DNA of 64,000 nt from Heterodontus francisci. Taxonomy: Eukaryota. Under the pieces are notes generated by a model. The model was not told where the DNA came from. It did no database searches and saw nothing but the letters and a program-made list of their open reading frames with translations. The DNA lies in assembly GCF_036365525.1 (NCBI RefSeq), contig NC_090378.1, forward strand, positions 117,537,593 through 117,601,592. Direction: 5' to 3'. Below are positions 26,703 through 54,972 of this stretch, piece after piece; position 1 is the first letter of the stretch, and the number at the start of each line of letters is the position of its first letter. A program made the position numbers and the translations under genes.

Positions 26703-29700
26703 AACACACCCAGACAGTACTGGGTAACGCACCCACATTCAGAGACACACACCTCCAGACAGTACTGGGTGACACATCCACACTCAAAGACACACACCTA
26801 CAGACAGTACTGGGTGACACACCCACACTCAGAGACACACACCTACAGACAATACTGGGGAACGCACCCACTCTCAGAGACACACACCTACAGACAGTAC
26901 TGGGTAACACATCCACACTCAGACACACACCTACAGACAGTACTGGGTAACACACCCACACTCAGAGACACACACCTACAGACAGTACTGGGTAATACAC
27001 CCACACTCAGAGACACACACCTACAGACAGTACTGGGTAACGCACCCACATTCAGAGACACTCACCTACAGACAGTACTGGGGAACGCACCCACACTCAG
27101 AGACACACACCTACAGACAGTACTGGGTAATGCACCCACATTCAGACACACACCTACAGACAGTACTGGGTGACACACCCACACTCAGAGACACACGCCT
27201 ACAGACAATACTGGGGAACGCACCCACTCTCAGAGACACACACCTACAGACAGTACTGGGTAACACACCCACACTCAGAGACACACACCTACAGACAGTA
27301 CTGGGGAACGCACCCACTCTCAGAGACACACACCTACAGACAGTACTGGGTAACACACCCACACTCAGAGACACACACCTACAGACAGTACTGGGTAACA
27401 CACCCACACTCAGAGACACACACCTACAGACAGTACTGGGTAACGCACCCACATTCAGAGACACTCACCTACAGACAGTACTGGGTAATACACCCACACT
27501 CAGAGACACACACCGACAGACAGTACTGGGTAACACACCCACACTCAGATACACACACCTACAGACAGTACTGGGTAACACACCCACACTCAGAGACACA
27601 CACCGACAGACAGTACTGGGTAACACACCCACACTCAGAGACACACACCTACAGACAGTACTGGGTAACGCACCCACATTCAGAGACACTCACCTACAGA
27701 CAGTACTGGGTAATACACCCACACTCAGAGACACACACCGACAGACAGTACTGGGTAACACACCCACACTCAGAGACACACACCTACAGACAGTACTGGG
27801 GAACGCACCCACTCTCAGAGACACACACCTACAGACAGTACTGGGTAACACACCCACACTCAGAGACACACACCTACAGACAGTACTGGGTAATACACCC
27901 ACACTCAGAGACACACACCTACAGACAGTACTGGGTAACGCACCCACATTCAGAGACACTCACCTACAGACAGTACTGGGTAATACAACCACACTCAGAG
28001 ACACACACCGACAGACAGTACTGGGTGACACACCTACACTCAGAGACACGCACCTACAGACAGTACTGGGGAACGCACCCACACTCAGAGACACACACCT
28101 ACAGACAGCACTGGGGAACGCACCCACTCTCAGAGACACACACCTACAGACAGTACTGGGTAACACACCCACACTCAGAGACACACACCTACAGACAGTA
28201 CTGGGTAACACACCCACACTCAGAGACACACACCTACAGACAGTACTGGGTAACGCACCCACATTCAGAGACACTCACCTACAGACAGTACTGGGTAATA
28301 CACCCACACTCAGAGACACACACCGACAGACAGTACTGGGTAACACACCCACACTCAGATACACACACCTACAGACAGTACTGGGTAACACACCCACACT
28401 CAGAGACACACACCGACAGACAGTACTGGGTAACACACCCACACTCAGAGACACACACCTACAGAAAGTACTGGGTAACGCACCCACATTCAGAGACACT
28501 CACCTACAGACAGTACTGGGTAATACACCCACACTCAGAGACACACACCGACAGACAGTACTGGGTAACACACCCACACTCAGAGACACACACCTACAGA
28601 CAGTACTGGGTAATACACCCACACTCAGAGACACACACCTACAGACAGTACTGGGTAACGCACCCACATTCAGAGACACTCACCTACAGACAGTACTGGG
28701 TAATACAACCACACTCAGAGACACACACCGACAGACAGTACTGGGTGACACACCTACACTCAGAGACACGCACCTACAGACAGTACTGGGGAACGCACCC
28801 ACTCTCAGAGACACTCACCTACAGACAGTACTGGGTAACACATCCACACTCAGAGTCACACACCTACAGACAGTACTGGGGAACGCACCCACTCTCAGAG
28901 ACACACACCTGCAGACAGTCCTGGGTAACACACCCACACTCAGAGACACTCACCTACAGACAGTACTGGGTAATACACCCACATTCAGAGACACACACCT
29001 ACAGACAGCACTGGGGAACGCACCCACTCTCAGAGACACACACCTACAGACAGTACTGGGTAACACACCCACACTCAGAGACACACACCTACAGACAGTA
29101 CTGGGTAACACACCCACACTCAGAGACACACACCTACAGACAGTACTGGGTAACGCACCCACATTCAGAGACACTCACCTACAGACAGTACTGGGTAATA
29201 CACCCACACTCAGAGACACACACCGACAGACAGTACTGGGTAACACACCCACACTCAGATACACACACCTACAGACAGTACTGGGTAACACACCCACACT
29301 CAGAGACACACACCGACAGACAGTACTGGGTAACACACCCACACTCAGAGACACACACCTACAGAAAGTACTGGGTAACGCACCCACATTCAGAGACACT
29401 CACCTACAGACAGTACTGGGTAATACACCCACACTCAGAGACACACACCGACAGACAGTACTGGGTAACACACCCACACTCAGAGACACACACCTACAGA
29501 CAGTACTGGGTAACACACCCACACTCAGAGACACACACCTACAGACAGTACTGGGTAATACACCCACACTCAGAGACACACACCTACAGACAGTACTGGG
29601 GAACGCACCCACTCTCAGAGACACACACCTACAGACAGTACTGGGTAACACACCCACACTCAGAGACACACACCTACAGACAGTACTGGGTAATACACCC

Positions 29701-32700
29701 ACACTCAGAGACACACACCTACAGACAGTACTGGGTAACGCACCCACATTCAGAGACACTCACCTACAGACAGTACTGGGTAATACAACCACACTCAGAG
29801 ACACACACCGACAGACAGTACTGGGTGACACACCTACACTCAGAGACACGCACCTACAGACAGTACTGGGGAACGCACCCACTCTCAGAGACACTCACCT
29901 ACAGACAGTACTGGGTAACACATCCACACTCAGAGTCACACACCTACAGACAGTACTGGGGAACGCACCCACTCTCAGAGACACACACCTGCAGACAGTC
30001 CTGGGTAACACACCCACACTCAGAGACACTCACCTACAGACAGTACTGGGTAATACACCCACATTCAGAGACACACACCTACAGACAGTACTGGGTAACA
30101 CACCCACACTCAGAGACACACACCTACAGACAGCACTGGGGAACGCACCCACTCTCAGAGACACACACCTACAGACAGTACTGGGTAACACACCCACACT
30201 CAGAGACACACACCTACAGACAGTACTGGGTAACACACCCACACTCAGAGACACACACCTGCAGACAGTACTGGGTAACACACCCACACTCAGAGACACA
30301 CACCTACAGACAGTACTGGGTAACACACCCACACTCAGAGACACACACCTACAGACAGTACTGGGTAACAGACCCACACTCAGAGACACACACCTACAGA
30401 CAGTACTGGGTAATGCACCCACACTCAGAGACACACACCTACAGACAGTACTGGGGAACGCACCCACTCTCAGAGACACACACCTACAGACAGTCCTGGG
30501 TAATACACCCACATTCAGAGACACTCACCTACAGACAGTACTGGGTAACACACCCACACTCAGAGACACACACTGACAGACAGTACTGGGTAACACACCC
30601 ACATTCAGAGACACTCACTGACAGACAGTACTGGGTAACACACCCACACTCAGAGACACACACCTACAGACAGTACTGGGTAACACATCCACACTCAGAG
30701 ACACTCACTGACAGACAGTACTGGGTAACACATCCACACTCAGAGACACGCACCTACAGACAGTACTGGGTAACACACCCACACTCAGAGACACACACCT
30801 ACAGACAGTACTGGGTAATACACTCACACTCAGAGACACACACCTACAGACAGTACTGGGGAACGCACCCACTCTCAGAGACACACACCTGCAGACAGTC
30901 CTGGGTAACACACCCACACTCAGAGACACTCACCTACAGACAGTACTGGGTAATACACCCACATTCAGAGACACACACCTACAGACAGTACTGGGTAACA
31001 CACCCACACTCAGAGACACACACCTACAGACAGCACTGGGGAACGCACCCACTCTCAGAGACACACACCTACAGACAGTACTGGGTAACACACCCACACT
31101 CAGAGACACACACCTACAGACAGTACTGGGTAACACACCCACACTCAGAGACACACACCTGCAGACAGTACTGGGTAACACACCCACACTCAGAGACACA
31201 CACCTACAGACAGTACTGGGTAACACACCCACACTCAGAGACACACACCTACAGACAGTACTGGGTAACAGACCCACACTCAGAGACACACACCTACAGA
31301 CAGTACTGGGTAATACACCCACACTCAGAGACACACACCTACAGACAGTACTGGGTAATGCACCCACACTCAGAGACACACACCTACAGACAGTACTGGG
31401 GAACGCACCCACTCTCAGAGACACACACCTACAGACAGTCCTGGGTAATACACCCACATTCAGAGACACTCACCTACAGACAGTACTGGGTAACACACCC
31501 ACACTCAGAGACACACACTGACAGACAGTACTGGGTAACACACCCACATTCAGAGACACTCACTGACAGACAGTACTGGGTAACACACCCACACTCAGAG
31601 ACACACACCTACAGACAGTACTGGGTAACACATCCACACTCAGAGACACTCACTGACAGACAGTACTGGGTAACACATCCACACTCAGAGACACGCACCT
31701 ACAGACAGTACTGGGTAACACACCCACACTCAGAGACACACACCTACAGACAGTACTGGGTAATACACTCACACTCAGAGACACACACCTACAGACAGTA
31801 CTGGGGAACGCACCCACTCTCAGAGACACACACCTGCAGACAGTCCTGGGTAACACACCCACACTCAGAGACACACACTGACAGACAGTACTGGGTAACA
31901 CATCCACACTCAGAGACACGCACCTACAGACAGTACTGGGTAACACACCCACATTCAGAGACACTCACTGACAGACAGTACTGGGTAACACATCCACACT
32001 CAGAGACATGCACCTACAGACAGTACTGGGTAACACACCCACATTCAGAGACACTCACTGACAGACAGTACTGGGTAACACATCCACACTCAGAGACACG
32101 CACCTACAGACAGTACTGGGTAACACACCCACACTCAGAGACACACACCTACAGACAGTACTGGGTAACACACCCACACTCAGAGACACGCACCTACAGA
32201 CAGTACTGGGTGACATACCCACACTCAGAGACACACACCTACAGACAGTACTGGGTGACACACCCACTCTCAGAGACACACACCTACAGACAGTCCTGGG
32301 TAATACACCCACATTCAGAGACACTCACCTACAGACAGTACTGGGTAACACACCCACACTCAGAGACACACACTGACAGACAGTACTGGGTAACACACCC
32401 ACATTCAGAGACACTCACTGACAGACAGTACTGGGTAACACACCCACACTCAGAGACACACACCTACAGACAGTACTGGGTAACACACCCACATTCAGAG
32501 ACACTCACTGACAGACAGTACTGGGTAACACATCCACACTCAGAGACACGCACCTACAGACAGTACTGGGTAACACACCCACACTCAGAGACACACACCT
32601 ACAGACAGTACTGGGTAATACACCCACACTCAGAGACACACACCTACAGACAGTACTGGGGAACGCACCCACTCTCAGAGACACACACCTGCAGACAGTC

Positions 32701-33400
32701 CTGGGTAACACACCCACACTCAGAGACACACACTGACAGACAGTACTGGGTAACACATCCACACTCAGAGACACGCACCTACAGACAGTACTGGGTAACA
32801 CACCCACATTCAGAGACACTCACTGACAGACAGTACTGGGTAACACATCCACACTCAGAGACACGCACCTACAGACAGTACTGGGTAACACACCCACATT
32901 CAGAGACACTCACTGACAGACAGTACTGGGTAACACACCCACACTCAGAGACACACACCTACAGACAGTACTGGGTGACACACCCACACTCAGAGACACA
33001 CACCTACAGACAGTACTGGGTGACACACCCATACTCAGAGACACACACCTACAGACAGCACTGGGTGACACACCCACACTCAGAGACACACACCTACAGA
33101 CAGTACTGGGTGACACACCCACACTCAGAGACACACACCTACAGACAGTACTGGGTGACACACCCACACTCAGAGACACTCACCTACAGACAGTACTGGG
33201 TAACACACCCACACTCAGAGACACACACCTACAGACAGTACTGGGTAACACACCCACACTCAGAGACACACACCTACAGACAGTACTGGGTAACACACCC
33301 ACACTCAGAGACACACACCTACAGACAGTACTGGGTAACACCCCCACACTCAGAGACACTCACCTACAGACAGTACTGGGTAACAGTCACACCCACACTC
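26703..33400. repeat. 45-bp satellite array (~148 units)
   Basis: Unit CAGACAGTACTGGGTAACACACCCACACTCAGAGACACACACCTA, highly homogeneous, with recurring blocks of variant units. Confidence 0.97.
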
Positions 33401-34507: not shown

Positions 34508-34836
34508 CTACACACATTCTGATCTGCTCACACTCTTACTGAGGGGAGAGGAGAGGGTCTCATGGATCAGGGCACAGGAGAAGCGGGCGTTGGACTCCCA
34601 GTCAGAGCCAGAGAGGGTCAGCAGGCTGCTGACACTGTAGGTGCTATCCGAAGCTCGCAGGTAGTTGCTGGTCTGAACCCCGGCCGAAATGACTGCACCG
34701 TCCTTCTTCCACTCTACCCCCACTTCATCGGGATAGAAGTGATCGGCAAGGCACACCAGGGTGGCAGTGCCCTTGGCCTTGACCTCCTCCTCCGAGGGGG
34801 GCAGCAGGGTCAGTGTGGGTTGAGACTTCTCTCGGC
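34508..34836 (-). CDS. IGKC: Ig light-chain constant exon, kappa / elasmobranch type III
   Basis: Acceptor CTCTTTCAG at 34837, phase 1. Intact C1-set domain (S)REKSQPTLTLLPPSEEEVKAKGTATLVCLADHFYPDEVGVEWKKDG...STYSVSSLLTLSGSDWESNARFSCALIHETLSSPLSKSVSRSECV*, with both domain Cys, the Trp and the penultimate inter-chain Cys; TAG at 34508-34510. Confidence 0.96.
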
Positions 34837-35079
34837 CTGAAAGAGAAGAGAAAAACTGTTAATCACTGCATGTTTGTGTGCTCGGTGTATATATTTGTGT
34901 GTTGTGGGTATATGTGTTCTTTGTGCATTTTTGCATATTCTGTGTATATCTGTGTTTCCTGTGTGTATATTTGTGTGTTCTGTGTGTGTATTTATGTGTT
35001 CTATATATATTTGTGTGTTCTATAAATATTTATGTATTCTGAGTATATATTTATTTGTTCTGTGTATATGTGTGTGTTC

Positions 35080-38860: not shown

Positions 38861-38895
38861 TCAGTCTGAGCTTGGTTCCTTTACCAAACGTTAAC
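38861..38895 (-). CDS. IGKJ: Ig light-chain J segment
   Basis: G TTA ACG TTT GGT AAA GGA ACC AAG CTC AGA CTG A = LTFGKGTKLRL (FGxGT motif); donor GTAAGT at 38860-38855; phase 1 matches the C exon. Confidence 0.96.
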
Positions 38896-38934
38896 CACAC
38901 TGACAGCTTCCAGTGCAGGGGCTGTACAATATCC
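38896..38934 (+). promoter_or_regulatory. J recombination signal sequence, 23-bp spacer
   Basis: Heptamer CACACTG (38896-38902), 23-bp spacer (38903-38925), nonamer ACAATATCC (38926-38934). Confidence 0.9.
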
Positions 38935-38939
38935 TCTGC

Positions 38940-39757
38940 TCTGTGTTTCACTCACTCACTCTCACACTCTCTCTGTCTTTCACTGTCACTGTGTCTCTCT
39001 CTCTCTGTCTGTATTTGTGTGTGTGTGTGTGTCTCTCTTTCTCTCTCTCTGTGTTTCCTTCCCTGTGTGTGCCTCTGTGTGTGTGTCTGTCTCTCTGTCT
39101 GTATTTGTGTGTGTGTCTCTCTCTGTGTTTCCTTCTCGGTGTGTGCCTCTGTGTGTGTGTCTCTCTCTGTCTGTATTTGTGTGTGTGTCTCTCTCTGTGT
39201 TTCCTTCTCGGTGTGTGCCTCTGTGTGTGTGTCTCTCTCTGTCTGTATTTGTGTGTGTGTCTCTCTCTGTGTTTCTTTCTCGGTGTGTGCCTCTGTGTGT
39301 GTGTCTGTCTCTCCGTCTGTATTTGTGTGTGTGTCTCTCTCTGTGTTTACTTCCCGGTGTGTGCCTCTGTGTGTGTGTCTGTCTCTCCGTCTGTATTTGT
39401 GTGTGTGTCTCTCTCNNNNNNNNNNNNNNNNNNNNNNNNNNNNNNNNNNNNNNNNNNNNNNNNNNNNNNNNNNNNNNNNNNNNNNNNNNNNNNNNNNNNN
39501 NNNNNNNNNNNNNNNNNNNNNNNNNNNNNNNNNNNNNNNNNNNNNNNNNNNNNNNNNNNNNNNTTTGTGTGTGTGTCTCTCTCTGTGTTTCCTTCCCTGT
39601 GTGTGCCTCTCTCTGTCTGTATTTGTGTGTGTGTCTCTCTCTGTGTTTCCTTCTCGGTGTGTGCCTCTGTGTGTGTGTCTGTCTCTCCGTCTGTATTTGT
39701 GTGTGTCTCTCTCTGTGTTTACTTCCCGGTGTGTGCCCCTGTGTCTCTCTCTCTCTT
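38940..39757. repeat. CT/GT compound repeat next to the J RSS, spanning an assembly gap
   Basis: Repeated CTCTCTGTCTGTATTTGTGTGTGTGTCTCTCTCTGTGTTTCC... on both sides of the N run at 39416-39563. Confidence 0.9.
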
Positions 39758-39965: not shown

Positions 39966-40684
39966 ATTTTCTTTTGTTATTTGATCATGGGATATGGGCG
40001 TCACTGGCTAGGCCAGCATTTATTGCCCATCCCTAATTGCCCACTGAAGGCATTTAAGAGTCAACCACATTGCTGTGGGTCTGGAGTCACATGAAGACCA
40101 GACCAGGTAAGGCCTGCAGATTTCCTTCCCTGAAGGACATTAGTGAACCAGATGGGTTTTTACAACAATCGACAATGGTTTCATGGTCACCATTCCACCA
40201 GCTTTTAATTCCAGATTTATTAATTGAATTCAAATTTCACTATCTGCCATGGTGGGATTCAAACACATGTCCCCAGAACGGCACAGTGGCGCAGTGGTTA
40301 GCACCGCAGCCTCACAGCTCCAGCGACCCGGGTTCAATTCTGGGTACTGCCTGTGTGGAGTTTGCAAGTTCTCTCTGTGTCTGCGTGGGTTTCCTCCGGG
40401 TGCTCCGGTTTCCTCAAACATGCCAAAGACTTGCAGATTGATAGGTAAATTGGCCATTAGCAATTGCCCCTAGTATAGGTAGGTGGTAGGGAAATTTGGG
40501 TACAGGTGAGGATGTGGTAGGAATATGGAATTAGTGTAGGATTAGTATAAATGGGTGGTTGATGGTCGGCACAGACTCGGTGGGCCGAAGGGCCTGTTTC
40601 AATGCTGTATCTCTAAAAAAAAAATTAGCCTGGGCCTCTGGATTACTGGTCAAGTGACATTACCACTACACCATCACCTCCCCC
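39966..40684 (-). mobile_element. tRNA-headed SINE inserted in the CR1, itself split by an HE1-like SINE
   Basis: Minus-strand head GGGGAGGTGATGGTGTAGTGGTAATGTCAC...GTTTGAATCCC; the body matches 18578-18722 and the tail matches 13036-13093. Confidence 0.75.
40279..40623 (+). mobile_element. tRNA-derived V-SINE (HE1-like), copy 3
   Basis: Full A/B boxes, central domain, CR1-like tail and an A-tail; homologous to copies 1 and 2. Confidence 0.9.
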
Positions 40685-43028
40685 TACAATCGAGAACTAG
40701 GCTGAATGTAGAAGGCTCAGAGGGGAATTTAAAAGGCAAAGGGAAGAAAAGAGAGAGTATGAAAAGAGACTGGCAGCTAATACAATAGTGGATCTAATAG
40801 TCTTGTATCGGCATGTATATAGTAAAAGAGTGGTAAAAGGAGTAGTGGGGCGATTAGGGACCAAAAAGGGGATTTACACATGGAGGTAGGAGCATGGCTG
40901 AGGTATGAAATGAATACTTTCCATCTGTCTTTATCAAGGGAGAAGATGCTGCACAGGTCATAGTGAAAGAGAAGGTAATTCAGACACCAGATGGGTTTAA
41001 AATTGATAAAGAGGAGTTATTGGATAGGCTGTCTGTACTTAAAGTGGATTAAACACCAGGACTGGATGAGATGCACCCAAGGATACTGAGGGAGTGAGAG
41101 TGGAAATTGCAGAGCCACTGCCATAATTTTACAGTCTTCGTTAAACTCAGGGATGGTGGCAGAGAATTGGAGAATTGTAAATGTGACACCCTTGTTCAAA
41201 AAAAGGGTGTAAAGATAAGCCCAGCAATGTCAAGCCAGTCAGTTTAACCTCAGTGGTGGGGAAACTTCTAGAAAGAATAATTCAGGACAAGATTAATAGT
41301 CACATGGACAAGTGCAAGTTAGTTAAGGAAAGCCAGCAATGATTTGTTCAGGGCAAATCATGTTTAACTAACTTGTTGGAGTTTTTGATCAGGTAACAGA
41401 GAGAGTTGATGAGGGCAATGTTGTTGCTGTTGATGTTGTGTACATGGACTTTCAAAAGGTGTTTGACACAGTGCCACACAACAGACTGGTGAGCAAAGTT
41501 ATAGCTCATGGAATAAAAGGGACAGAAGCAACATGGATACAAAATTGGCTGAGTGACAGGAAAAAGAGAGTAGTTAATGGATATTTTTCAGGCTGGAGGA
41601 AGATTTGTAGTGGAGTTCCTCAGGGATCAGTGTTGGGATCCTTGCTTTTCCTAATATATATTAATGACCTAAACCTTGGTGTGCAGGGCACAATTTCAAA
41701 ATTTGCAGAAGATACAAAACTTGGAAGTATTGTGAACTGTGAGGAAGACAGTGTAGAACTTCAAAAGGATACAGACAGGTTGGTGGAATGGGCTGACAAG
41801 TGGCAGATGAAATTTAAATGCAGAGAAGTGTGATGTGGTAGAGAGAATGCGGAGAGACAATATAAAATAAAGGGTATAATTCTAAAGGAGGTACAGGAGC
41901 AGAGGGACCTAAGTGTATATGTGCGGAAGTCATTGAAGGTGGCAGGACAGGTTGAGAGAGAGGTTAATAAAGCATACAGTATCCTGGGCTTTATTAATAG
42001 GGGCACAGAGTACAAGAGCAAGGAGGTTATGTTAAACTTGTATAAAACACTAGTTCAGCCTCAACTGGAGGACTGTGTCCAGTTCTGGGTGCCACAATTT
42101 AGGAAGGAAGTGAAGGCATTAGAGAGGGTGCAGAAAGGATTCACAAGAATCGGTCCAGGGATAGTTATGTGGATAAATTGGAGAAGCTGGGACTGTTTCC
42201 TTGGAGATGAGAAGGTTGAGAGGGGATTTGATAGGGGTATTCAAAATCATTAGGGCTCTGGACAGAGTAGATAGGGAGAAACTATTACCATTGGTGGAAG
42301 GATCGAGAACCAGAGGGCACAGATGTAAGGTAATTGGCAAAAGATGCAATGGTGACATGAGGAGAAACTTTTTCACACAGCGAGTAGTTCGGATCTGGAA
42401 GACACTGCCTGAGAGTGTGGTGGAGGCAGGTTCAATTGATGCATTCAAAAGGGAATTGGATTATTCTCCTAAAAGGAAGGATATGCAGGATGACGGGGAG
42501 AAGGTGCCGGAGTGTCACGAGGTGAATTGCTCTTTCAGAGATCCAGCACAGAAATGATGGCCTGAATGGCCTTCTTCTGTGCTGTAACCATTCTATAATT
42601 CTATCATTGTTTTTCAAAGTCTGTATTTGTCTCTCATTGCCTGCGTGTCTCCCGTTGTGTGTGTGTGGATGTGTCTCTTTCCTTCTGTCTCTCAATGTCT
42701 GCGTGCATGTCTCTGTGCCTCTACGCATATCTCCCTGTCCCTCTCCCACCTTCTCTCACTCATTCTGTCTCTCCCTTGGTCTGTATCTCTCTCACACTCT
42801 GCCTCTCACTGTTTCTGTGTCTCGCTGTGTCTAAGCTGCATGCAGCAGTGCTCGGGAGAGTTGGAATCCCAATTCGATGAAAACATTTTCAGCATCTCTT
42901 CATAAGTGCACATGGAGTGTTCGAGGAACAACTTAAGCCTTCAATGAGCAGTGGGCACCACAGGGGCAGGGGGGTGTAGTGGACAGTGAACATAATGTCA
43001 TGGTTTAATTTGATCAGTTTACGTTCTT

Positions 43029-46000
43029 CATTAATTATATTACATATATAACTGTGAGATGTGTCAGTACAGGAGGTGGGACTGTGTGTCCATTATTATA
43101 TATTATATATAACTGTGGGATGTGTCAGTGCCGGAGGTGGGACTGTGTGTCCATTATTATATATTATATATAACTGTGGGATGTGTCAGTGCCGGAGGTG
43201 GGACTGTGTGTCCATTATTATATATTATATATAACTGTGGGATGTGTCAGTGCAGGAGGTGGGACTGTGTGTCCATTATTATATATTATATATAACTGTG
43301 GGATGTGTCAGTGCCGGAGGTGGGACTGTGTGTCCATTATTATATATTATATATAACTGTGGGATGTGTCAGTGCAGGAGGTGGGACTGTGTGTCCATTA
43401 TTATATATTATATATAACTGTGGGATGTGTCAGTTCAGGAGGTGGGACCGTGTGTCCATTATTATATATTATATATAACTGTGGGATGTGTCAGTGCAGG
43501 AGGTGGGACTGTGTGTCCATTATTATATATTATATATAACTGTGGGATGTGTCAGTCCAGGAGGTGGGACTGTGTGTCCATTATTATATATTATTTATAA
43601 CTGTGGGATGTGTCAGTCCAGGAGGTGGGACTGTGTGTCCATTATTATATATCATATACAACTGTGGGATGTGTCAGTCCAGGAGGTGGGACTGTGTGTC
43701 CATTATTATATATTATATATAACTGTGGGATGTGTCAGTCCAGGAGGTGGGACTGTGTGTCCATTATTATATATTATTTATAACTGTGGGATGTGTCAGT
43801 CCAGGAGGTGGGACTGTGTGTCCATTATTATATATTATATATAACTGTGGGATGTGTCAGTCCAGGAGGTGGGGCTGTGTGTCCATTATTATATATTATA
43901 TATAACAGTGGGATGTGTCAGTCCAGGAGGTGGGACTGTGTGTCCATTATTATATATTATATATAACTGTGGGATGTGTCAGTCCAGGAGGTGGGACTGT
44001 GTGTTCATTATTATATATTATATATAACTGTGGGATGTGTCAGTCCAGGAGGTGGGACTGTGTGTCCATTATTATATATTATATATAACTGTGGGATGTG
44101 TCAGTATGCAGGAGGTGGGACTGTGTGTCCATTATTATATATTATATATAGCTGTGGGATGTGTCAGTACAGGAGGTGAGACTGTGTGTCCATTATTATA
44201 TATTATATATAACTGTGGGATGTGTCAGTATACAGGAGGTGGGACTGTGTGTCCATTATTATATATTATATATAGCTGTGGGATGTGTCAGTACAGGAGG
44301 TGAGACTGTGTGTCCATTATTATATATTATATATAACTGTGGGATGTGTCAGTGCAGGAGGTGGGACTGTGTGTCCATTATTATATATTATATATAACTG
44401 TGGGATGTGTCAGTCCAGGAGGTGGGACTGTGTGTCCATTATTATATATTATTTATAACTGTGGGATGTGTCAGTCCAGGAGGTGGGACTGTGTGTCCAT
44501 TATTATATATCATATACAACTGTGGGATGTGTCAGTCCAGGAGGTGGGACTGTGTGTCCATTATTATATATTATATATAACAGTGGGATGTGTCAGTCCA
44601 GGAGGTGGGGCTGTGTGTCCATTATTATATATTATATATAACAGTGGGATGTGTCAGTCCAGGAGGTGGGACTGTGTGTCCATTATTATATATTATATAT
44701 AACTGTGGGATGTGTCAGTCCAGGAGGTGGGGCTGTGTGTCCATTATTATATATTATATATAACAGTGGGATGTGTCAGTCCAGGAGGTGGGGCTGTGTG
44801 TCCATTATTATATATTATATATAACAGTGGGATGTGTCAGTCCAGGAGGTGGGACTGTGTGTCCATTATTATATATTATATATAACTGTGGGATGTGTCA
44901 GTATGCAGGAGGTGGGACTGTGTGTCCATTATTATATATTATAGATAGCTGTGGGATGTGTCAGTACAGGAGGTGAGACTGTGTGTCCATTATTATATAT
45001 TATATATAACTGTGGGATGTGTCAGTCCAGGAGGTGGGACTGTGTGTCCATTATTATATATTATATATAACTGTGGGATGTGTCAGTATGCAGGAGGTGG
45101 GACTGTGTGTCCATTATTATATATTATAGATAGCTGTGGGATGTGTCAGTACAGGAGGTGAGACTGTGTGTCCATTATTATATATTATATATAACTGTGG
45201 GATGTGTCAGTATACAGGAGGTGGGACTGTGTGTCCATTATTATATATTATATATAGCTGTGGGATGTGTCAGTACAGGAGGTGAGACTGTGTGTCCATT
45301 ATTATGTATTATATATAACTGTGGGATGTGTCAGTCCAGAAGGTGAGACTGTGTGTCCATTATTATATATTATATATAACTGTGGGATGTGTCAGTGCAG
45401 GAGGTGGGACCGTGTGTCCATTATTATATATTATATATAACTGTGGGATGTGTCAGTCCAGGAGGTGGGACTGTGTGTCCATTATTTTATATTGTATATA
45501 ACTGTGGGACGTGTCAGTACAGGAGGTGGGACTGTGTGTCCATTATTATATATTATATATAAATGTGGGATGTGTCAGTCCAGGAGGTGGGACTGTGTGT
45601 CCATTATTATGTATTATATATAACTGTGGGATGTGTCAGTATACAGGAGGTAGGACTGTGTGTCCACTATTATATATTATATATAGCTGTGGGATGTGTC
45701 AGTACAGGAGGTGAGACTGTGTTTCCATTATTATGTATTATATATAACTGTGGGATGTGTCAGTCCAGAAGGTGAGACTGTGTGTCCATTATTATATATT
45801 ATATATAACTGTGGGATGTGTCAGTGCAGGAGGTGGGACCGTGTGTCCATTATTATATATTATATATAACTGTGGGATGTGTCAGTCCAGGAGGTGGGAC
45901 AGTGTGTCCATTATTATATATTGTATATAACTGTGGGACGTGTCAGTACAGGAGGTGGGACTGTGTGTCCATTATTATATATTATATATAACTGTGGGAT

Positions 46001-49000
46001 GTGTCAGTACAGGAGGTGGGACTGTGTGTCCATTATTATAAATGATATATAACTGTGGAATGTGTCAGTACAGGAGGTGGGACTGTGTGTCCATTATTAT
46101 ACATTATATATAACTGTGGGACGTGTCAGTACAGGAGCTGGGACTGTGTGTCCATTATTATATATTATATATAACTGTGGGACGTGTCAGTACAGGAGGT
46201 GGGACTGTGTGTCCATTATTATATATTATATATAACTGTGGGACGTGTCAGTACAGGAGGTGGGACTGTGTGTCCATTATTATATTATATAACTGTGGGA
46301 CGTGTCAGTACAGGAGGTGGGACTGTGTTTCCATTATTATATATTATATATAACTGTGGGATGTGTCAGTACAGGAGGTGGGATCCTGTGTTCATTATTA
46401 TATATTATATATAACTGTGGGATGTGTCAGTGAGGGAGGTGGGACTGTGTGTCCATTATTATATATTATATATAACTGTGGGACATGTCAGGACAGGAGG
46501 TGGGACTGTGTTTCCATTATTATATATTATATATCACTGTGGGATGTGTCAGTACAGGAGGTGGGATCCTGTGTTCATTATTATATATTATATATAACTG
46601 TGGGATGTGTCAGTGAGGGAGGTGGGACTGTGTGTCCATTATGATATATTATATATAACTGTGGGATGTGTCAGTTCGGGAGGTGGGACTGTGTGTCCAT
46701 TATTATATATTATATATAACTGTGGGATGTGTCAGTTCGGGAGGTGGGACTGTGTGTCCATTGTTATATATTATATATAACTGTGGGATGTGTCAGTGCA
46801 GGAGGTGGGACTGTGTGTCCATTATTATATATTATATATAACTGTGGGATGTGTCAGTACAGGAGGTGGGACTGTGTGTCCATTATTATATATTATATAT
46901 AACTGTGGGATGTGTCAGTCCAGGAGGTGGGACTGTGTGTCCATTATTATATATTATATATCACTGTGGGATGTGTCAGTGCAGGAGGTGGGACTGTGTG
47001 TCCATTATTATATATTATATATAACTGTGGGATGTGTCAGTACAGGAGGTGGGACTGTGTGTCCATTATTATATATTATATATAACTGTGGGATGTGTCA
47101 GTCCAGGAGGTGGGACTGTGTGTCCATTATTATATATTATATATCACTGTGGGATGTGTCAGTGCAGGAGGTGGGACTGTGTGTCCATTATTATATATTA
47201 TATATAACTGTGGGATGTGTCAGTGCAGGAGGTGGGACTGTGTGTCCATTATTATATATTATATATAACTGTGGGATGTGTCAGTACAGGAGGTGGGACT
47301 GTGTGTCCATTATTATATATTATATATAACTGTGGGATGTGTCAGTACAGGAGGTGGGACTGTGTGTCCATTATTATATATTATATATAACTGTGGAATG
47401 TGTCAGTACAGGAGGTGGGACTGTGTGTCCATTATTATATATTATATATAACTGTGGGATGTGTCAGTACAGGAGGTGGGACTGTGTGTCCATTATTATA
47501 TATTATATATAACTGTGGAATGTGTCAGTACAGGAGGTGGGACTGTGTGTCCATTATTATATATTATATATAACTGTGGGATGTGTCAGTACAGGAGGTG
47601 GGACTGTGTGTCCATTATTATATATTATATATAACTGTGGGATGTGTCAGTACAGGAGGTGGGACTGTGTGTCCATTATTATATATTATATATAACTGTG
47701 GGATGTGTCAGTACAGGAGGTGGGACTGTGTGTCCATTATTATATATTATATATAACTGTGGGATGTGTCAGTACAGGAGGTGGGACTGTGTGTCCATTA
47801 TTATATATTATATATAACTGTGGGATGTGTCAGTCCAGGAGGTGGGACTGTGTGTCCATTATTATATATTATATATAACTGTGGGATGTGTCAGTATGCA
47901 GGAGGTGGGACTGTGTGTCCATTATTATATATTATATATAGCTGTGGGATGTGTCAGTACAGGAGGTGAGACTGTGTGTCCATTATTATATATTATATAT
48001 AACTGTGGGATGTGTCAGTATACAGGAGGTGGGACTGTGTGTCCATTATTATATATTATATATAGCTGTGGGATGTGTCAGTACAGGAGGTGAGACTGTG
48101 TGTCCATTATTATATATTATATATAACTGTGGGATGTGTCAGTGCAGGAGGTGGGACTGTGTGTCCATTATTATATATTATATATAACTGTGGGATGTGT
48201 CAGTCCAGGAGGTGGGACTGTGTGTCCATTATTATATATTATTTATAACTGTGGGATGTGTCAGTCCAGGAGGTGGGACTGTGTGTCCATTATTATATAT
48301 CATATACAACTGTGGGATGTGTCAGTCCAGGAGGTGGGACTGTGTGTCCATTATTATATATTATATATAACAGTGGGATGTGTCAGTCCAGGAGGTGGGG
48401 CTGTGTGTCCATTATTATATATCATATACAACTGTGGGATGTGTCAGTCCAGGAGGTGGGGCTGTGTGTCCATTATTATATATTATATATAACTGTGGGA
48501 TGTGTCAGTCCAGGAGGTGGGGCTGTGTGTCCATTATTATATATTATATATAACTGTGGGATGTGTCAGTCCAGGAGGTGGGGCTGTGTGTCCATTATTA
48601 TATATTATATATAACAGTGGGATGTGTCAGTCCAGGAGGTGGGACTGTGTGTCCATTATTATATATTATATATAACTGTGGGATGTGTCAGTATGCAGGA
48701 GGTGGGACTGTGTGTCCATTATTATATATTATAGATAGCTGTGGGATGTGTCAGTACAGGAGGTGAGACTGTGTGTCCATTATTATATATTATATATAAC
48801 TGTGGGATGTGTCAGTCCAGGAGGTGGGACTGTGTGTCCATTATTATATATTATATATAACTGTGGGATGTGTCAGTATGCAGGAGGTGGGACTGTGTGT
48901 CCATTATTATATATTATAGATAGCTGTGGGATGTGTCAGTACAGGAGGTGAGACTGTGTGTCCATTATTATATATTATATATAACTGTGGGATGTGTCAG

Positions 49001-52000
49001 TATACAGGAGGTGGGACTGTGTGTCCATTATTATATATTATATATAGCTGTGGGATGTGTCAGTACAGGAGGTGAGACTGTGTGTCCATTATTATGTATT
49101 ATATATAACTGTGGGATGTGTCAGTCCAGAAGGTGAGACTGTGTGTCCATTATTATATATTATATATAACTGTGGGATGTGTCAGTGCAGGAGGTGGGAC
49201 CGTGTGTCCATTATTATATATTATATATAACTGTGGGATGTGTCAGTCCAGGAGGTGGGACTGTGTGTCCATTATTTTATATTGTATATAACTGTGGGAC
49301 GTGTCAGTACAGGAGGTGGGACTGTGTGTCCATTATTATATATTATATATAAATGTGGGATGTGTCAGTCCAGGAGGTGGGACTGTGTGTCCATTATTAT
49401 GTATTATATATAACTGTGGGATGTGTCAGTATACAGGAGGTAGGACTGTGTGTCCACTATTATATATTATATATAGCTGTGGGATGTGTCAGTACAGGAG
49501 GTGAGACTGTGTTTCCATTATTATGTATTATATATAACTGTGGGATGTGTCAGTCCAGAAGGTGAGACTGTGTGTCCATTATTATATATTATATATAACT
49601 GTGGGATGTGTCAGTGCAGGAGGTGGGACCGTGTGTCCATTATTATATATTATATATAACTGTGGGATGTGTCAGTCCAGGAGGTGGGACAGTGTGTCCA
49701 TTATTATATATTGTATATAACTGTGGGACGTGTCAGTACAGGAGGTGGGACTGTGTGTCCATTATTATATATTATATATAACTGTGGGATGTGTCAGTAC
49801 AGGAGGTGGGACTGTGTGTCCATTATTATAAATGATATATAACTGTGGAATGTGTCAGTACAGGAGGTGGGACTGTGTGTCCATTATTATACATTATATA
49901 TAACTGTGGGACGTGTCAGTACAGGAGCTGGGACTGTGTGTCCATTATTATATATTATATATAACTGTGGGACGTGTCAGTACAGGAGGTGGGACTGTGT
50001 GTCCATTATTATATATTATATATAACTGTGGGACGTGTCAGTACAGGAGGTGGGATTGTGTGTCCATTATTATATTATATAACTGTGGGACGTGTCAGTA
50101 CAGGAGGTGGGACTGTGTTTCCATTATTATATATTATATATAACTGTGGGATGTGTCAGTACAGGAGGTGGGATCCTGTGTTCATTATTATATATTATAT
50201 ATAACTGTGGGATGTGTCAGTGAGGGAGGTGGGACTGTGTGTCCATTATTATATATTATATATAACTGTGGGACATGTCAGGACAGGAGGTGGGACTGTG
50301 TTTCCATTATTATATATTATATATCACTGTGGGATGTGTCAGTACAGGAGGTGGGATCCTGTGTTCATTATTATATATTATATATAACTGTGGGATGTGT
50401 CAGTGAGGGAGGTGGGACTGTGTGTCCATTATGATATATTATATATAACTGTGGGATGTGTCAGTTCGGGAGGTGGGACTGTGTGTCCATTATTATATAT
50501 TATATATAACTGTGGGATGTGTCAGTTCGGGAGGTGGGACTGTGTGTCCATTGTTATATATTATATATAACTGTGGGATGTGTCAGTGCAGGAGGTGGGA
50601 CTGTGTGTCCATTATTATATATTATATATAACTGTGGGATGTGTCAGTACAGGAGGTGGGACTGTGTGTCCATTATTATATATTATATATAACTGTGGGA
50701 TGTGTCAGTCCAGGAGGTGGGACTGTGTGTCCATTATTATATATTATATATCACTGTGGGATGTGTCAGTGCAGGAGGTGGGACTGTGTGTCCATTATTA
50801 TATATTATATATAACTGTGGGATGTGTCAGTACAGGAGGTGGGACTGTGTGTCCATTATTATATATTATATATAACTGTGGGATGTGTCAGTCCAGGAGG
50901 TGGGACTGTGTGTCCATTATTATATATTATATATCACTGTGGGATGTGTCAGTGCAGGAGGTGGGACTGTGTGTCCATTATTATATATTATATATAACTG
51001 TGGGATGTGTCAGTGCAGGAGGTGGGACTGTGTGTCCATTATTATATATTATATATAACTGTGGGATGTGTCAGTACAGGAGGTGGGACTGTGTGTCCAT
51101 TATTATATATTATATATAACTGTGGGATGTGTCAGTACAGGAGGTGGGACTGTGTGTCCATTATTATATATTATATATAACTGTGGAATGTGTCAGTACA
51201 GGAGGTGGGACTGTGTGTCCATTATTATATATTATATATAACTGTGGGATGTGTCAGTACAGGAGGTGGGACTGTGTGTCCATTATTATATATTATATAT
51301 AACTGTGGAATGTGTCAGTACAGGAGGTGGGACTGTGTGTCCATTATTATATATTATATATAACTGTGGGATGTGTCAGTACAGGAGGTGGGACTGTGTG
51401 TCCATTATTATATATTATATATAACTGTGGGATGTGTCAGTACAGGAGGTGGGACTGTGTGTCCATTATTATATATTATATATAACTGTGGGATGTGTCA
51501 GTACAGGAGGTGGGACTGTGTGTCCATTATTATATATTATATATAACTGTGGGATGTGTCAGTACAGGAGGTGGGACTGTGTGTCCATTATTATATATTA
51601 TATATAACTGTGGGATGTGTCAGTACAGGAGGTGGGACTGTGTGTCCATTATTATATATTATATATAACTGTGGAATGTGTCAGTACAGGAGGTGGGACT
51701 GTGTGTCCATTATTATATATTATATATAACTGTGGGATGTGTCAGTACAGGAGGTGGGACTGTGTGTCCATTATTTTATATTGTATATAACTGTGGGACG
51801 TGTCAGTACAGGAGGTGGGACTGTGTGTCCATTATTATATATTATATATAAATGTGGGATGTGTCAGTCCAGGAGGTGGGACTGTGTGTCCATTATTATG
51901 TATTATATATAACTGTGGGATGTGTCAGTATACAGGAGGTAGGACTGTGTGTCCACTATTATATATTATATATAGCTGTGGGATGTGTCAGTACAGGAGG

Positions 52001-54266
52001 TGAGACTGTGTTTCCATTATTATGTATTATATATAACTGTGGGATGTGTCAGTCCAGAAGGTGAGACTGTGTGTCCATTATTATATATTATATATAACTG
52101 TGGGATGTGTCAGTGCAGGAGGTGGGACCGTGTGTCCATTATTATATATTATATATAACTGTGGGATGTGTCAGTCCAGGAGGTGGGACAGTGTGTCCAT
52201 TATTATATATTGTATATAACTGTGGGACGTGTCAGTACAGGAGGTGGGACTGTGTGTCCATTATTATATATTATATATAACTGTGGGATGTGTCAGTACA
52301 GGAGGTGGGACTGTGTGTCCATTATTATAAATGATATATAACTGTGGAATGTGTCAGTACAGGAGGTGGGACTGTGTGTCCATTATTATACATTATATAT
52401 AACTGTGGGACGTGTCAGTACAGGAGCTGGGACTGTGTGTCCATTATTATATATTATATATAACTGTGGGACGTGTCAGTACAGGAGGTGGGACTGTGTG
52501 TCCATTATTATATATTATATATAACTGTGGGACGTGTCAGTACAGGAGGTGGGACTGTGTGTCCATTATTATATTATATAACTGTGGGACGTGTCAGTAC
52601 AGGAGGTGGGACTGTGTTTCCATTATTATATATTATATATAACTGTGGGATGTGTCAGTACAGGAGGTGGGATCCTGTGTTCATTATTATATATTATATA
52701 TAACTGTGGGATGTGTCAGTGAGGGAGGTGGGACTGTGTGTCCATTATTATATATTATATATAACTGTGGGACATGTCAGGACAGGAGGTGGGACTGTGT
52801 TTCCATTATTATATATTATATATCACTGTGGGATGTGTCAGTACAGGAGGTGGGATCCTGTGTTCATTATTATATATTATATATAACTGTGGGATGTGTC
52901 AGTGAGGGAGGTGGGACTGTGTGTCCATTATGATATATTATATATAACTGTGGGATGTGTCAGTTCGGGAGGTGGGACTGTGTGTCCATTATTATATATT
53001 ATATATAACTGTGGGATGTGTCAGTACAGGAGGTGGGACTGTGTGTCCATTATTATATATTATATATAACTGTGGGATGTGTCAGTCCAGGAGGTGGGAC
53101 TGTGTGTCCATTATTATATATTATATATCACTGTGGGATGTGTCAGTGCAGGAGGTGGGACTGTGTGTCCATTATTATATATTATATATAACTGTGGGAT
53201 GTGTCAGTACAGGAGGTGGGACTGTGTGTCCATTATTATATATTATATATAACTGTGGGATGTGTCAGTCCAGGAGGTGGGACTGTGTGTCCATTATTAT
53301 ATATTATATATCACTGTGGGATGTGTCAGTGCAGGAGGTGGGACTGTGTGTCCATTATTATATATTATATATAACTGTGGGATGTGTCAGTGCAGGAGGT
53401 GGGACTGTGTGTCCATTATTATATATTATATATAACTGTGGGATGTGTCAGTACAGGAGGTGGGACTGTGTGTCCATTATTATATATTATATATAACTGT
53501 GGGATGTGTCAGTACAGGAGGTGGGACTGTGTGTCCATTATTATATATTATATATAACTGTGGAATGTGTCAGTACAGGAGGTGGGACTGTGTGTCCATT
53601 ATTATATATTATATATAACTGTGGGATGTGTCAGTACAGGAGGTGGGACTGTGTGTCCATTATTATATATTATATATAACTGTGGAATGTGTCAGTACAG
53701 GAGGTGGGACTGTGTGTCCATTATTATATATTATATATAACTGTGGGATGTGTCAGTACAGGAGGTGGGACTGTGTGTCCATTATTATATATTATATATA
53801 ACTGTGGGATGTGTCAGTACAGGAGGTGGGACTGTGTGTCCATTATTATATATTATATATAACTGTGGGATGTGTCAGTACAGGAGGTGGGACTGTGTGT
53901 CCATTATTATATATTATATATAACTGTGGGATGTGTCAGTACAGGAGGTGGGACTGTGTGTCCATTATTATATATTATATATAACTGTGGGATGTGTCAG
54001 TACAGGAGGTGGGACTGTGTGTCCATTATTATATATTATATATAACTGTGGAATGTGTCAGTACAGGAGGTGGGACTGTGTGTCCATTATTATATATTAT
54101 ATATAACTGTGGGATGTGTCAGTACAGGAGGTGGGACTGTGTGTCCATTATTATATATTATATATAACTGTGGGATGTGTCAGTACAGGAGGTGGGACTG
54201 TGTGTCCATTATTATATATTATATATAACTGTGGGATGTGTCAGTACAGGCTTTGGGACTGTGTGT
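43029..54266. repeat. 61-bp satellite array (~184 units) in the V-J interval
   Basis: Unit ATAACTGTGGGATGTGTCAGTACAGGAGGTGGGACTGTGTGTCCATTATTATATATTATAT; a 3790-bp higher-order duplication is visible in the ORF track. Confidence 0.97.
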
Positions 54267-54271
54267 ATTGA

Positions 54272-54299
54272 GGTTTTTGTACGGCTCTGTCTCACTGTG
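54272..54299 (-). promoter_or_regulatory. V recombination signal sequence, 12-bp spacer, perfect consensus
   Basis: CACAGTG (54299-54293), 12-bp spacer, ACAAAAACC (54280-54272). The V-12/J-23 arrangement is kappa-type. Confidence 0.97.
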
Positions 54300-54597
54300 T
54301 AGGGGCTGCTGCTATATTGCTGACAGTAATAATCTGCGACATCCTCATTCTGTACATTACTGATTGTCAGAGTGAATTTGAGGTTCTGTTGACTGCCGGT
54401 GAACCGTTCCGATATTCCTGTGTATCGAGTTGTTGCACCATAGATCAGGAGAGTGGGTTTCTGACCGTCTCGCTGCTGATACCAAGCTGCATACTTGCTC
54501 ACGGACTGGCTGGCCGTACAGGTGATCGTTGCGGTCTGTCCCAGTGTCACTGACAGTGCCGGTGGAGACTGGGTCATGATGATGTCTCCACTGATAC
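54300..54597 (-). CDS. IGKV: Ig light-chain V exon (end of leader plus V domain), unrearranged
   Basis: Acceptor TACCCCTCAG at 54598; (G)[98 protein letters not shown]; canonical Cys, WYQQ and DxADYYC; no stops. Confidence 0.97.
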
Positions 54598-54783
54598 CTG
54601 AGGGGTAATAGAGAAACAGAGTGAAGTAAGAACTGTCACAGAAAGACCCTGTAAAATGAGATATTATTGGAGACAGTGACCGCTCCTCTTGTTTCAGCAT
54701 TTTCCCTCCAATCACAAGTCAGCAGAATTGGACTGAAATAAACAGCAGGAAAATATTAACCGTGGAAGGAGAGAGATTTGTAT

Positions 54784-54832
54784 CTGCCACGCAGAATGCC
54801 AGAGGCCAGATCAGCTGGATGGGTGAAATCAT
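54784..54832 (-). CDS. Ig light-chain leader exon with non-canonical donor
   Basis: ACC ATG Kozak context; MISPIQLIWPLAFCVA+G (49 nt, phase 1, in frame with the V exon), followed by ATACAAAT instead of GT. Confidence 0.88.
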
Positions 54833-54892: not shown

Positions 54893-54972
54893 TTTATAAA
54901 GCTGCAGCCTGTGAGAGTCTGACTGCCTGTTTCTCAGTATGTAAATGGTATCACCCAGAGAAAGGCACGTCA
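54893..54972 (-). promoter_or_regulatory. V promoter: TATA box, variant octamer, CRE-like site
   Basis: TATAAA at 54898-54893; ATTTACAT at 54946-54939 (one mismatch from ATTTGCAT); TGACGTG at 54972-54966. Confidence 0.65.

Follow-up and report, generated by a model that had tools for sequence, protein, structure and literature searches.

In the horn shark, Heterodontus francisci, each of the 28 kappa light-chain clusters has its V–J gap filled by a locus-specific minisatellite. Probably, if by no means certainly, it represents an old single-copy stretch, situated immediately after the recombination signal sequence (RSS) of the V segment, that became amplified in tandem, with its own likeness to an RSS being incidental and leading to trace off-target cutting at most. 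A first array would have arisen in an ancestral horn-shark cluster, would have been copied with each cluster duplication and may then have been lengthened or shortened through unequal exchange or slippage. Such an array is presumably tolerated on the grounds that V–J joining removes the gap and that both genuine RSSs are strong. Shark antibody clusters are the standard case in which V(D)J joining spans just a few hundred bases and involves no locus contraction (PMC2435157). Here, 28 clusters with near-identical promoters and V and J signals cover a 29-fold range of V–J distances owing to a single satellite. In this natural distance series one can ask if cartilaginous fish already make use of long-range RAG scanning or loop extrusion, and also if distance affects gene usage and exclusion.

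Layout of the window cluster

The window, i.e. the whole stretch of 64,000 nucleotides that was analysed, contains one of these clusters. Read on the minus strand, it comprises a leader exon (MISPIQLIWPLAFCVA; 54784..54832), an Ig kappa V exon of the V-set with an open frame (54300..54597, the acceptor being set from the spliced joint), the V 12-RSS (54272..54299; CACAGTG-12-ACAAAAACC, with heptamer and nonamer both of perfect consensus), a J segment (LTFGKGTKLRL; 38861..38895) with a GT donor, and a kappa constant exon of the C1-set (34523..34837). The J 23-RSS (38896..38934; CACACTG-23-ACAATATCC) lies on the plus strand and is convergent to the V RSS, which implies deletional joining. The C exon matches records that carry the name Heterodontus francisci kappa light chain at 91–100% identity and a nurse shark record at 85% identity. 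By the homology of its V and C exons we class the cluster as a chondrichthyan Ig kappa (type III/NS4) cluster, to which its layout—one V, J and C in order, with a 12-RSS at V and a 23-RSS at J—likewise points. The element ATTTACAT (54939..54946, minus strand), which is located 114 bp before the ATG and identical in its letters in 28/28 clusters, we take to be an octamer-like promoter motif. The leader splice donor of the window cluster is broken: positions 54782–54783 read AT instead of GT, in this cluster only, with GT being present in 27/27 other clusters.

The V–J gap of 15.4 kb is not short by the nurse shark measure of about 0.5 kb, and most of it is taken up by the 61-bp satellite (43029..54266, no strand assigned), which consists of 184 units (61-bp unit x184 according to TRF). 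Within it there is a higher-order block of about 3.8 kb, and each unit carries five CACs, which lie exclusively on the V sense (minus) strand. A linker of 5 bp (54267..54271, minus strand) separates the V nonamer from the first satellite unit, a spacing that is identical in 28/28 clusters.

V–J joined and spliced transcripts, originating from paralogous clusters, are present among assembled contigs from four runs taken as RNA (one sample); being contig-based, these data drop rare forms and do not allow clusters to be ranked. A splice joint of the leader–V class occurs in 4/4 runs, and V ends run into J. Satellite words also occur in RNA-run contigs, from which we do not claim transcription of the array.

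The array in all 28 kappa clusters and its origin

On one horn shark contig we found 28 V, 28 J and 28 C kappa segments, with all 28 clusters being split. Their V–J gaps measure 7,544–216,660 bp (median 48,960), and in each of them the array follows the V nonamer at a distance of 5 bp and ends 2.8–5.4 kb before J, the gaps built from this RSS-adjacent sequence totalling 1.6 Mb. That no cluster is without the array, and that in none it starts elsewhere, has to be counted against our preferred explanation. On the forward strand, 936 of 937 matches to a 48-mer (6 Gb searched) and 2,833 of 2,858 genomic matches to a 22-mer fall within the 15 minus-strand kappa gaps; locus specificity refers to these forward matches, with reverse-strand matches (946 and 3,159, respectively) being counted rather than placed individually. 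The 13 plus-strand gaps were read at their ends, along with one whole gap and nine inner samples, and within the 217-kb gap the array was seen in 9/9 inner samples.

With a tandem unit of tens of base pairs, interspersed variants and copy-to-copy changes in length, the array has the features of a hypervariable minisatellite (VNTR). Gap lengths are unequal even between sister clusters (22.6 vs 28.5 kb, 66 vs 81 kb and 46 vs 51.5 kb), and the arrays hold 11 retroelement-like insertions. Assemblers struggle with long tandem arrays, and several of the clusters form near-identical pairs, some of them inverted, which might suggest that the long arrays were inflated by assembly. We consider this extremely improbable, however, as 11,024 units fall into 2,757 distinct variants, higher-order patterns and insertions are cluster-specific, the 14 retrieved gaps are free of N, and a contig from one run (X2) crosses V, RSS and the first satellite unit.

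An unlikely, if still serious, alternative is that the array has been kept as a spacer or as an element of silencing. Its length and repeat chromatin would then lower the odds of rearrangement of any of the 56 kappa alleles and thereby aid light-chain exclusion, with no need for RSS likeness. The occurrence of the array in 28/28 clusters with a fixed start and a stop short of J, and its absence from three other split light-chain clusters of the horn shark with V–J gaps of 0.3–0.4 kb, would agree with such a role, as would the fact that exclusion among shark miniloci has been called a long-standing puzzle (PMC2435157). Universal presence could mean retention, though many of the clusters are recent duplicates. 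A spacer or silencer is more difficult to reconcile with a 29-fold length range that changes even between recent sister clusters, with the tolerance of the arrays for insertions, and with the nurse shark running 60–70 kappa-type loci at gaps of about 0.5 kb (PMC2193156 and PMC2435157).

Our preferred explanation, amplification of a pre-existing stretch, draws on other sharks, represented by protein gene models only. Cetorhinus, Scyliorhinus, Chiloscyllium and Stegostoma share a conserved first half of the unit behind their kappa RSS, and of nine tested gene models extending beyond the RSS, seven match the translation of the first unit (shuffle p < 0.001 in six, 0.044 in one). The unit was thus likely amplified in place. 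The same conservation might indicate an amplified cis-element, e.g. an RSS-side CTCF site, that each of these sharks carries after its V signal, which seems very improbable to us and is kept as a minor rival. Scored against an approximate CTCF matrix, the consensus attains 5.8 of 26 bits, which is not a strong motif near the RSS, and at least 10 bits are reached in only 47/11,024 units; because of this weak score, a CTCF array was dropped as the main reading. Moreover, read-through into the J spacer is equally conserved across sharks, and slow evolution near RSSs can therefore explain the conservation of the unit's first half.

Two further ideas about the unit were set aside. A derivation from the V RSS was rejected, since the V-spacer-like first unit is private to the window cluster, with an ordinary unit being found in 27/28 clusters. 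Chi-like and Jeffreys core motifs were detected as GC[A/T]GG[A/T]GG in 1,698 and GGAGGTGGG in 8,371 of 11,024 units, which is only a generic minisatellite fit.

Likeness of the unit to a 23-RSS

A preliminary description of this DNA had read the satellite as a tandem array of cryptic 23-RSSs, and the basic pattern is there: on the minus strand the consensus is CACAGTT-23-ACACAGTCC, i.e. a 6/7 heptamer and a 6/9 nonamer, and 112 units read precisely so. As also claimed, CACTGTG occurs on the plus strand at precisely the nine positions named there, which correspond to nine minus-strand units of the form CACAGTG-23-ACACAGTCC (46503..53318; starts at 46503, 46930, 47113, 50293, 50720, 50903, 52792, 53097 and 53280). 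These units represent three positions in each of three block copies (offsets of 3790 and then 2377–2499 bp), and, since they sit in a thrice-copied block, they are not nine independent events. The units were rightly described as oriented like the V 12-RSS; their orientation is opposite to that of the J 23-RSS. The figure of about 180 weak decoys was too high, as 12/16 matches are reached by 130/184 units only.

The nine units surpass the real J signal in the heptamer but not in the nonamer. The J nonamer takes row 10 among the top-1000 predicted functional nonamers of PMC12711392, whereas the consensus satellite nonamer ACACAGTCC does not appear in this table (Table S2), which gives predicted scores for the top 1,000 only, such that absence does not equal zero activity. 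By the same table, the best RSS candidates of the window are six units that had been overlooked, CACAGTT-23-ACAGGATCC (46381..52891, minus strand; starts at 46381, 46564, 50171, 50354, 52670 and 52853), whose nonamer takes row 585. The unit variants also include an ACAAAGTCC unit.

Compared with shuffled controls, the likeness is somewhat above chance: when the unit was shuffled 5,000 times each by dinucleotides and by trinucleotides, at least 6/7 plus 6/9 at a spacer of 12 or 23 was obtained in 0.6% and 5.2% of cases, respectively. We count the former value against an incidental origin of the likeness. A 74-bp CT/GT-rich repeat beside J (39042..39415, minus strand), which is unrelated to the satellite and served as an internal chance control, contains CACAGAG-12-ACAAATACA look-alikes with 13/16 matches.

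As for signal quality, the heptamer start CAC of a functional 23-RSS is intact in 10,556/11,147 units, and the consensus spacer is exactly 23 bp, although it is changed by indels in 334/11,024 units and takes most of the indels (334 of 553 length-variant units). The consensus nonamer carries C at position 4 and has neither purine–A/T–purine at positions 4–6 nor a place among the top 1,000 of PMC12711392. A top-1000 nonamer occurs in at least 345 of the 10,556 CAC-bearing units of 15 arrays (about 3%), and 137 of these units belong to one cluster. The consensus unit has exactly four RSS mismatches, i.e. it sits at the edge of the filter by which PMC11153149 sets aside strong RSS-like sites. Additive extrapolation from Table S2 yields a RIC23 of about −45, a value covering the nonamer only, in the context of the source assay's heptamer and spacer, with the T7 of the unit's heptamer and its AT-rich spacer lying outside the score. 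This is above the threshold of −60 (PMC2193808), which leaves room for some RSS activity of the satellite.

If so, the units could serve as decoys, i.e. as cryptic 23-RSSs with which the V 12-RSS pairs. By inversion V would then lose its signal and the cluster would fall silent, in a manner comparable to the kappa-deleting element of mammals. We regard this as improbable. The exact 23-bp spacer with its mostly intact CAC, the likeness beyond the chance level and the extrapolated nonamer score speak for it, as do the position of the units, far nearer to V than J is, and the precedent of mouse gamma-satellite, where RAG cuts cryptic 23-RSSs (PMC2193808). Several findings go against decoys: the RSS positions of the unit show no extra conservation relative to its remainder (p = 0.18, and p = 0.53 once the search anchor is left out), and no drift toward the RSS consensus was seen among 11,147 units. 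The frequent spacer indels, the consensus nonamer and the presence of V–J joined, spliced transcripts point the same way. There is no inverted 22-mer within 15 arrays and no strand-changing joint among the 15 joints listed, of 17, in the RNA-run contigs of one sample. An inversion product functioning as a coding joint was rejected as well, as stop codons interrupt every reading frame of the inverted flank within 150 bp, and the flank gave no match to the donor patterns tried; a V–satellite inversion joint would therefore be non-productive.

Joining across the satellite and known systems

The nurse shark NS4 and horned shark type III (kappa) clusters resemble those described here in isotype, V(12-RSS)–J(23-RSS)–C layout, high copy number and the presence of split genes. 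However, the nurse shark gap is 502–524 bp and some loci are germline-joined, whereas all 28 horn shark clusters are split by 7.5–217 kb of mostly satellite (PMC2193156). Shark IgH miniloci are also independent clusters that rearrange within themselves, but with segments about 400 bp apart, which is proposed to bypass locus contraction (PMC2435157); horn shark kappa clusters are 20–500 times wider. Joining over 7.5–217 kb is predicted to need more than short-range diffusion, e.g. loop extrusion that starts at a J-based centre, and on its way would encounter weak CAC sites facing the J RSS in their hundreds to thousands.

Such joining would recall linear RAG scanning and diffusional V-kappa capture in the mouse, which also combine a strong V 12-RSS with a J 23-RSS over long distances, and where off-target joining at convergent CAC motifs occurs at a very low level (PMC11153149). 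The horn shark differs in having one V per J, a satellite gap and no Cer/Sis-type element identified. Mouse gamma-satellite is likewise a tandem unit holding CAC-23-nonamer-like sites, and its cryptic 23-RSSs show recombination of 0.6% and 0.02% on plasmids, as well as cutting in a RAG-inducible line (PMC2193808); it lies outside antigen receptor loci, whereas the horn shark array is confined to the V–J gap and abuts a real RSS, with any activity being putative. In a further reading, horn shark kappa clusters would have ceased to be miniloci: each V would have to be found across 7.5–217 kb of satellite, and array length and weak cryptic signals would together set the rate at which a cluster rearranges or is silenced, making the satellite a rheostat for light-chain choice and exclusion, a scenario that we consider distinctly unlikely. 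In mammals, the kappa-deleting element (RS) carries a 23-spacer signal that can join a V-kappa 12-RSS and silence the locus. It is a single strong site 3' of C and acts by deletion, unlike the horn shark array, whose many weak sites between V and J would act by inversion and show no sign of use.

In the full-text literature searched, we found no description of satellite-stretched kappa clusters. V-to-J genomic PCR, as performed in the nurse shark, would presumably fail for horn shark kappa genes.

Satellite-filled V–J gaps of the kappa clusters

A single immunoglobulin light-chain cluster lies in the window, with leader (54784-54832), V (54300-54597), J (38861-38895) and C (34523-34837) all on the minus strand. 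At 91-100% identity, C matches records that bear the name Heterodontus francisci kappa light chain. V carries a perfect 12-RSS (54272-54299, minus strand) and J a 23-RSS, CACACTG-23-ACAATATCC (38896-38934); between them, 184 units of a 61-bp repeat (43029-54266) begin 5 bp behind the V nonamer. The J-to-array interval (40280-42600) contains what we take to be SINE-like and LINE-like pieces, and an unrelated 45-bp satellite (149 copies, 26704-33385) lies directly 3' of the C exon.

In the 6.0-Gb horn shark genome, this type has 28 copies each of V, J and C, all on one contig (C8, 115.7-124.8 Mb), with V–J gaps of 7,544-216,660 bp (median 48,960, total 1.59 Mb). In all 28 clusters, 5 bp separate the V nonamer from the array, which ends 2.8-5.4 kb short of J, with J-side lengths forming two groups of ~3 kb and ~4.2 kb. 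The 15 gaps covered whole hold 108-1,918 units each, and all nine samples taken from the 217-kb gap contain the array. These clusters are not independent, several forming sets of two or three that are almost identical, in some cases inverted, and gap length differs by 5-15 kb between sister clusters; that array length reflects assembly inflation is hardly credible. Genome-wide, forward matches to a satellite 48-mer (936 of 937) and 22-mer (2,833 of 2,858) fall inside the 15 minus-strand gaps, and three other split light-chain clusters have gaps of ~0.3-0.4 kb without the repeat. These data establish the anatomy and, on the forward strand, the locus specificity. The array is probably a self-amplifying minisatellite, flanked by a near-perfect signal at V and a strong one at J, and tolerated because gap DNA is removed at V–J joining. 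A role as spacer or silencing element seems unlikely.

Eleven insertions (247-3,398 bp) interrupt five arrays (c01, c07, c09, c10, c13); they share a retroelement-like end, lie within the AT-rich part of the unit, some in one orientation and some in the other, and resemble truncated RTE-type LINE ends. The clusters split at ~120.8 Mb of C8, minus-strand to the left and plus-strand to the right, and c09-c11 (119.1-119.5 Mb) recur with matching gap lengths as an inverted near-identical block, L088-L090 (122.8-123.2 Mb), either a genuine inverted duplication or a duplicate created by the assembly.

According to PMC2193156, the nurse shark NS4 V–J gap measures 502-524 bp, whereas horn shark kappa gaps are 15-400 times as wide in every cluster and share one private satellite, thus breaking with the compact shark minilocus as outlined in PMC2435157. 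A full-text literature search, with incomplete coverage of shark light chains, returned no description of satellite-filled kappa V–J gaps. These gaps, rather than the cryptic-RSS idea, are the finding to follow, and their range of lengths provides a natural distance series.

Resemblance of the 61-bp unit to a 23-RSS

The preliminary description had proposed that the satellite units read as cryptic 23-RSSs that could act as decoy partners of the V 12-RSS. As a look-alike the consensus holds, 112 units reading CACAGTT-23-ACACAGTCC, and all units share the orientation of the V RSS. Nine perfect CACAGTG heptamers are exactly where they had been placed, but represent only three positions within a block present in three copies. 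Up to ~180 partners had been envisaged; at least 12 of 16 positions match in 130 of the 184 units. Coincidence had also been considered: among 5,000 shuffled units per model, at least 6/7 plus 6/9 matches at a 12 or 23 spacer arose in 0.6% (dinucleotide) or 5.2% (trinucleotide). Moreover, the satellite 'nonamer' overlaps a second CACAGT within its own unit; beside J, an unrelated repeat also yields a look-alike (13/16). The likeness is therefore real, yet modest and chosen post hoc, and we lean towards regarding it as incidental.

Selection was assessed in the 15 minus-strand gaps rebuilt whole (11,147 units), counting distinct variants and omitting the near-duplicate clusters c12 and c15. The 12 RSS-matching positions showed no extra conservation over the other 49 (p = 0.18; outside the search anchor, p = 0.53). 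At the four mismatching positions, 42/245, 79/192, 47/433 and 36/81 changes went toward the RSS consensus, the spacer is altered in 334 of 553 length-variant units, and no inverted 22-mer occurs inside these 15 arrays. This establishes a lack of constraint, with no sign of selection for decoy function, and speaks against units being decoy signals, which we consider improbable.

Signal quality can be gauged from PMC12711392, a screen of 23-RSS nonamers listing the 1,000 best predicted out of 262,144. Row 10 is the real J nonamer; a term search of the supplement did not find the two commonest satellite nonamers in this top-1,000 list, in which single-base neighbours do appear. Summed over six variants, a listed nonamer is present in at least 345 of the 10,556 units with CAC in 15 arrays; in the window these are six ACAGGATCC units instead of the nine CACAGTG units previously favoured. 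With RIC values additive across table rows, the consensus nonamer extrapolates to about -45 when set in the heptamer and spacer of that assay. Since this exceeds the -60 threshold of PMC2193808, the unit may be a weak substrate, comparable to the mouse gamma-satellite units described there as weak RAG substrates. Such a cryptic RSS is an already-known type of off-target site and not a sign of function. In cluster c07 (C8, 118.33-118.38 Mb), 137 units have a better nonamer, ACAAAGTCC, and the V of this cluster, with nonamer ACAAAATCC, encodes one additional cysteine downstream of CDR2; c07 would be the best candidate for real off-target joints.

Joining and expression

According to PMC11153149, J-bound mouse RAG scans toward convergent CAC motifs, the yield being very low, and long-range capture is possible where kappa RSSs are strong. 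Because all five CAC per satellite unit face the J RSS, trace J-to-satellite deletions are no less plausible than the inversions of V suggested before. Leader-to-V splicing and V ends continuing into J, present in four runs guessed to be RNA from one sample, establish rearrangement of paralogs. In run X8, we match a loose end to V and J of the clusters whose gaps measure 22.6 or 28.5 kb, which indicates that joining takes place over tens of kb. None of the 15 joints listed of 17 changes strand, which is weak evidence against inversion, because contigs drop rare forms and a further 84 loose ends lie outside the listing.

The window's leader splice donor (54782-54783) is AT, not GT, uniquely among the 28 clusters, and among the spliced leader ends listed the letter is that of the paralogs; this copy is therefore likely not expressed normally. 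The public gene model P0002 at this locus has an odd N-terminus, fitting the AT donor.

Origin of the unit and other light-chain loci

The translated first unit is matched by seven of nine other-shark gene models running past the V RSS (two have no match), as in basking shark SIHTAPPPVLTH and catshark IHTFPPPGLTHPTV against a 15-residue horn shark stretch. The first half of the unit is thus old sequence behind the kappa RSS. This and the short nurse shark gap suggest that the unit was amplified in situ within the horn-shark lineage, the matches from other sharks coming from gene models that may conceal introns. That the array is an amplified cis-element is very improbable.

In three light-chain isotypes (L113, L117, L118; window 54281-54292), the 12-bp spacer of the RSS has ACAGAGC or ACAGGGC as a common core, and the 23-bp spacer of J hardly varies among sharks. 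An orphan J-like sequence on another contig (L116, C2:125446302), with no RSS of at least 13/16, V or satellite within 9.5 kb, is possibly a processed fragment. Germline-joined V–J genes with short CDR3 occur on C46, C650 and C23 (L119, L120 and L111), and large V families on C407, C761, C779 and other contigs.
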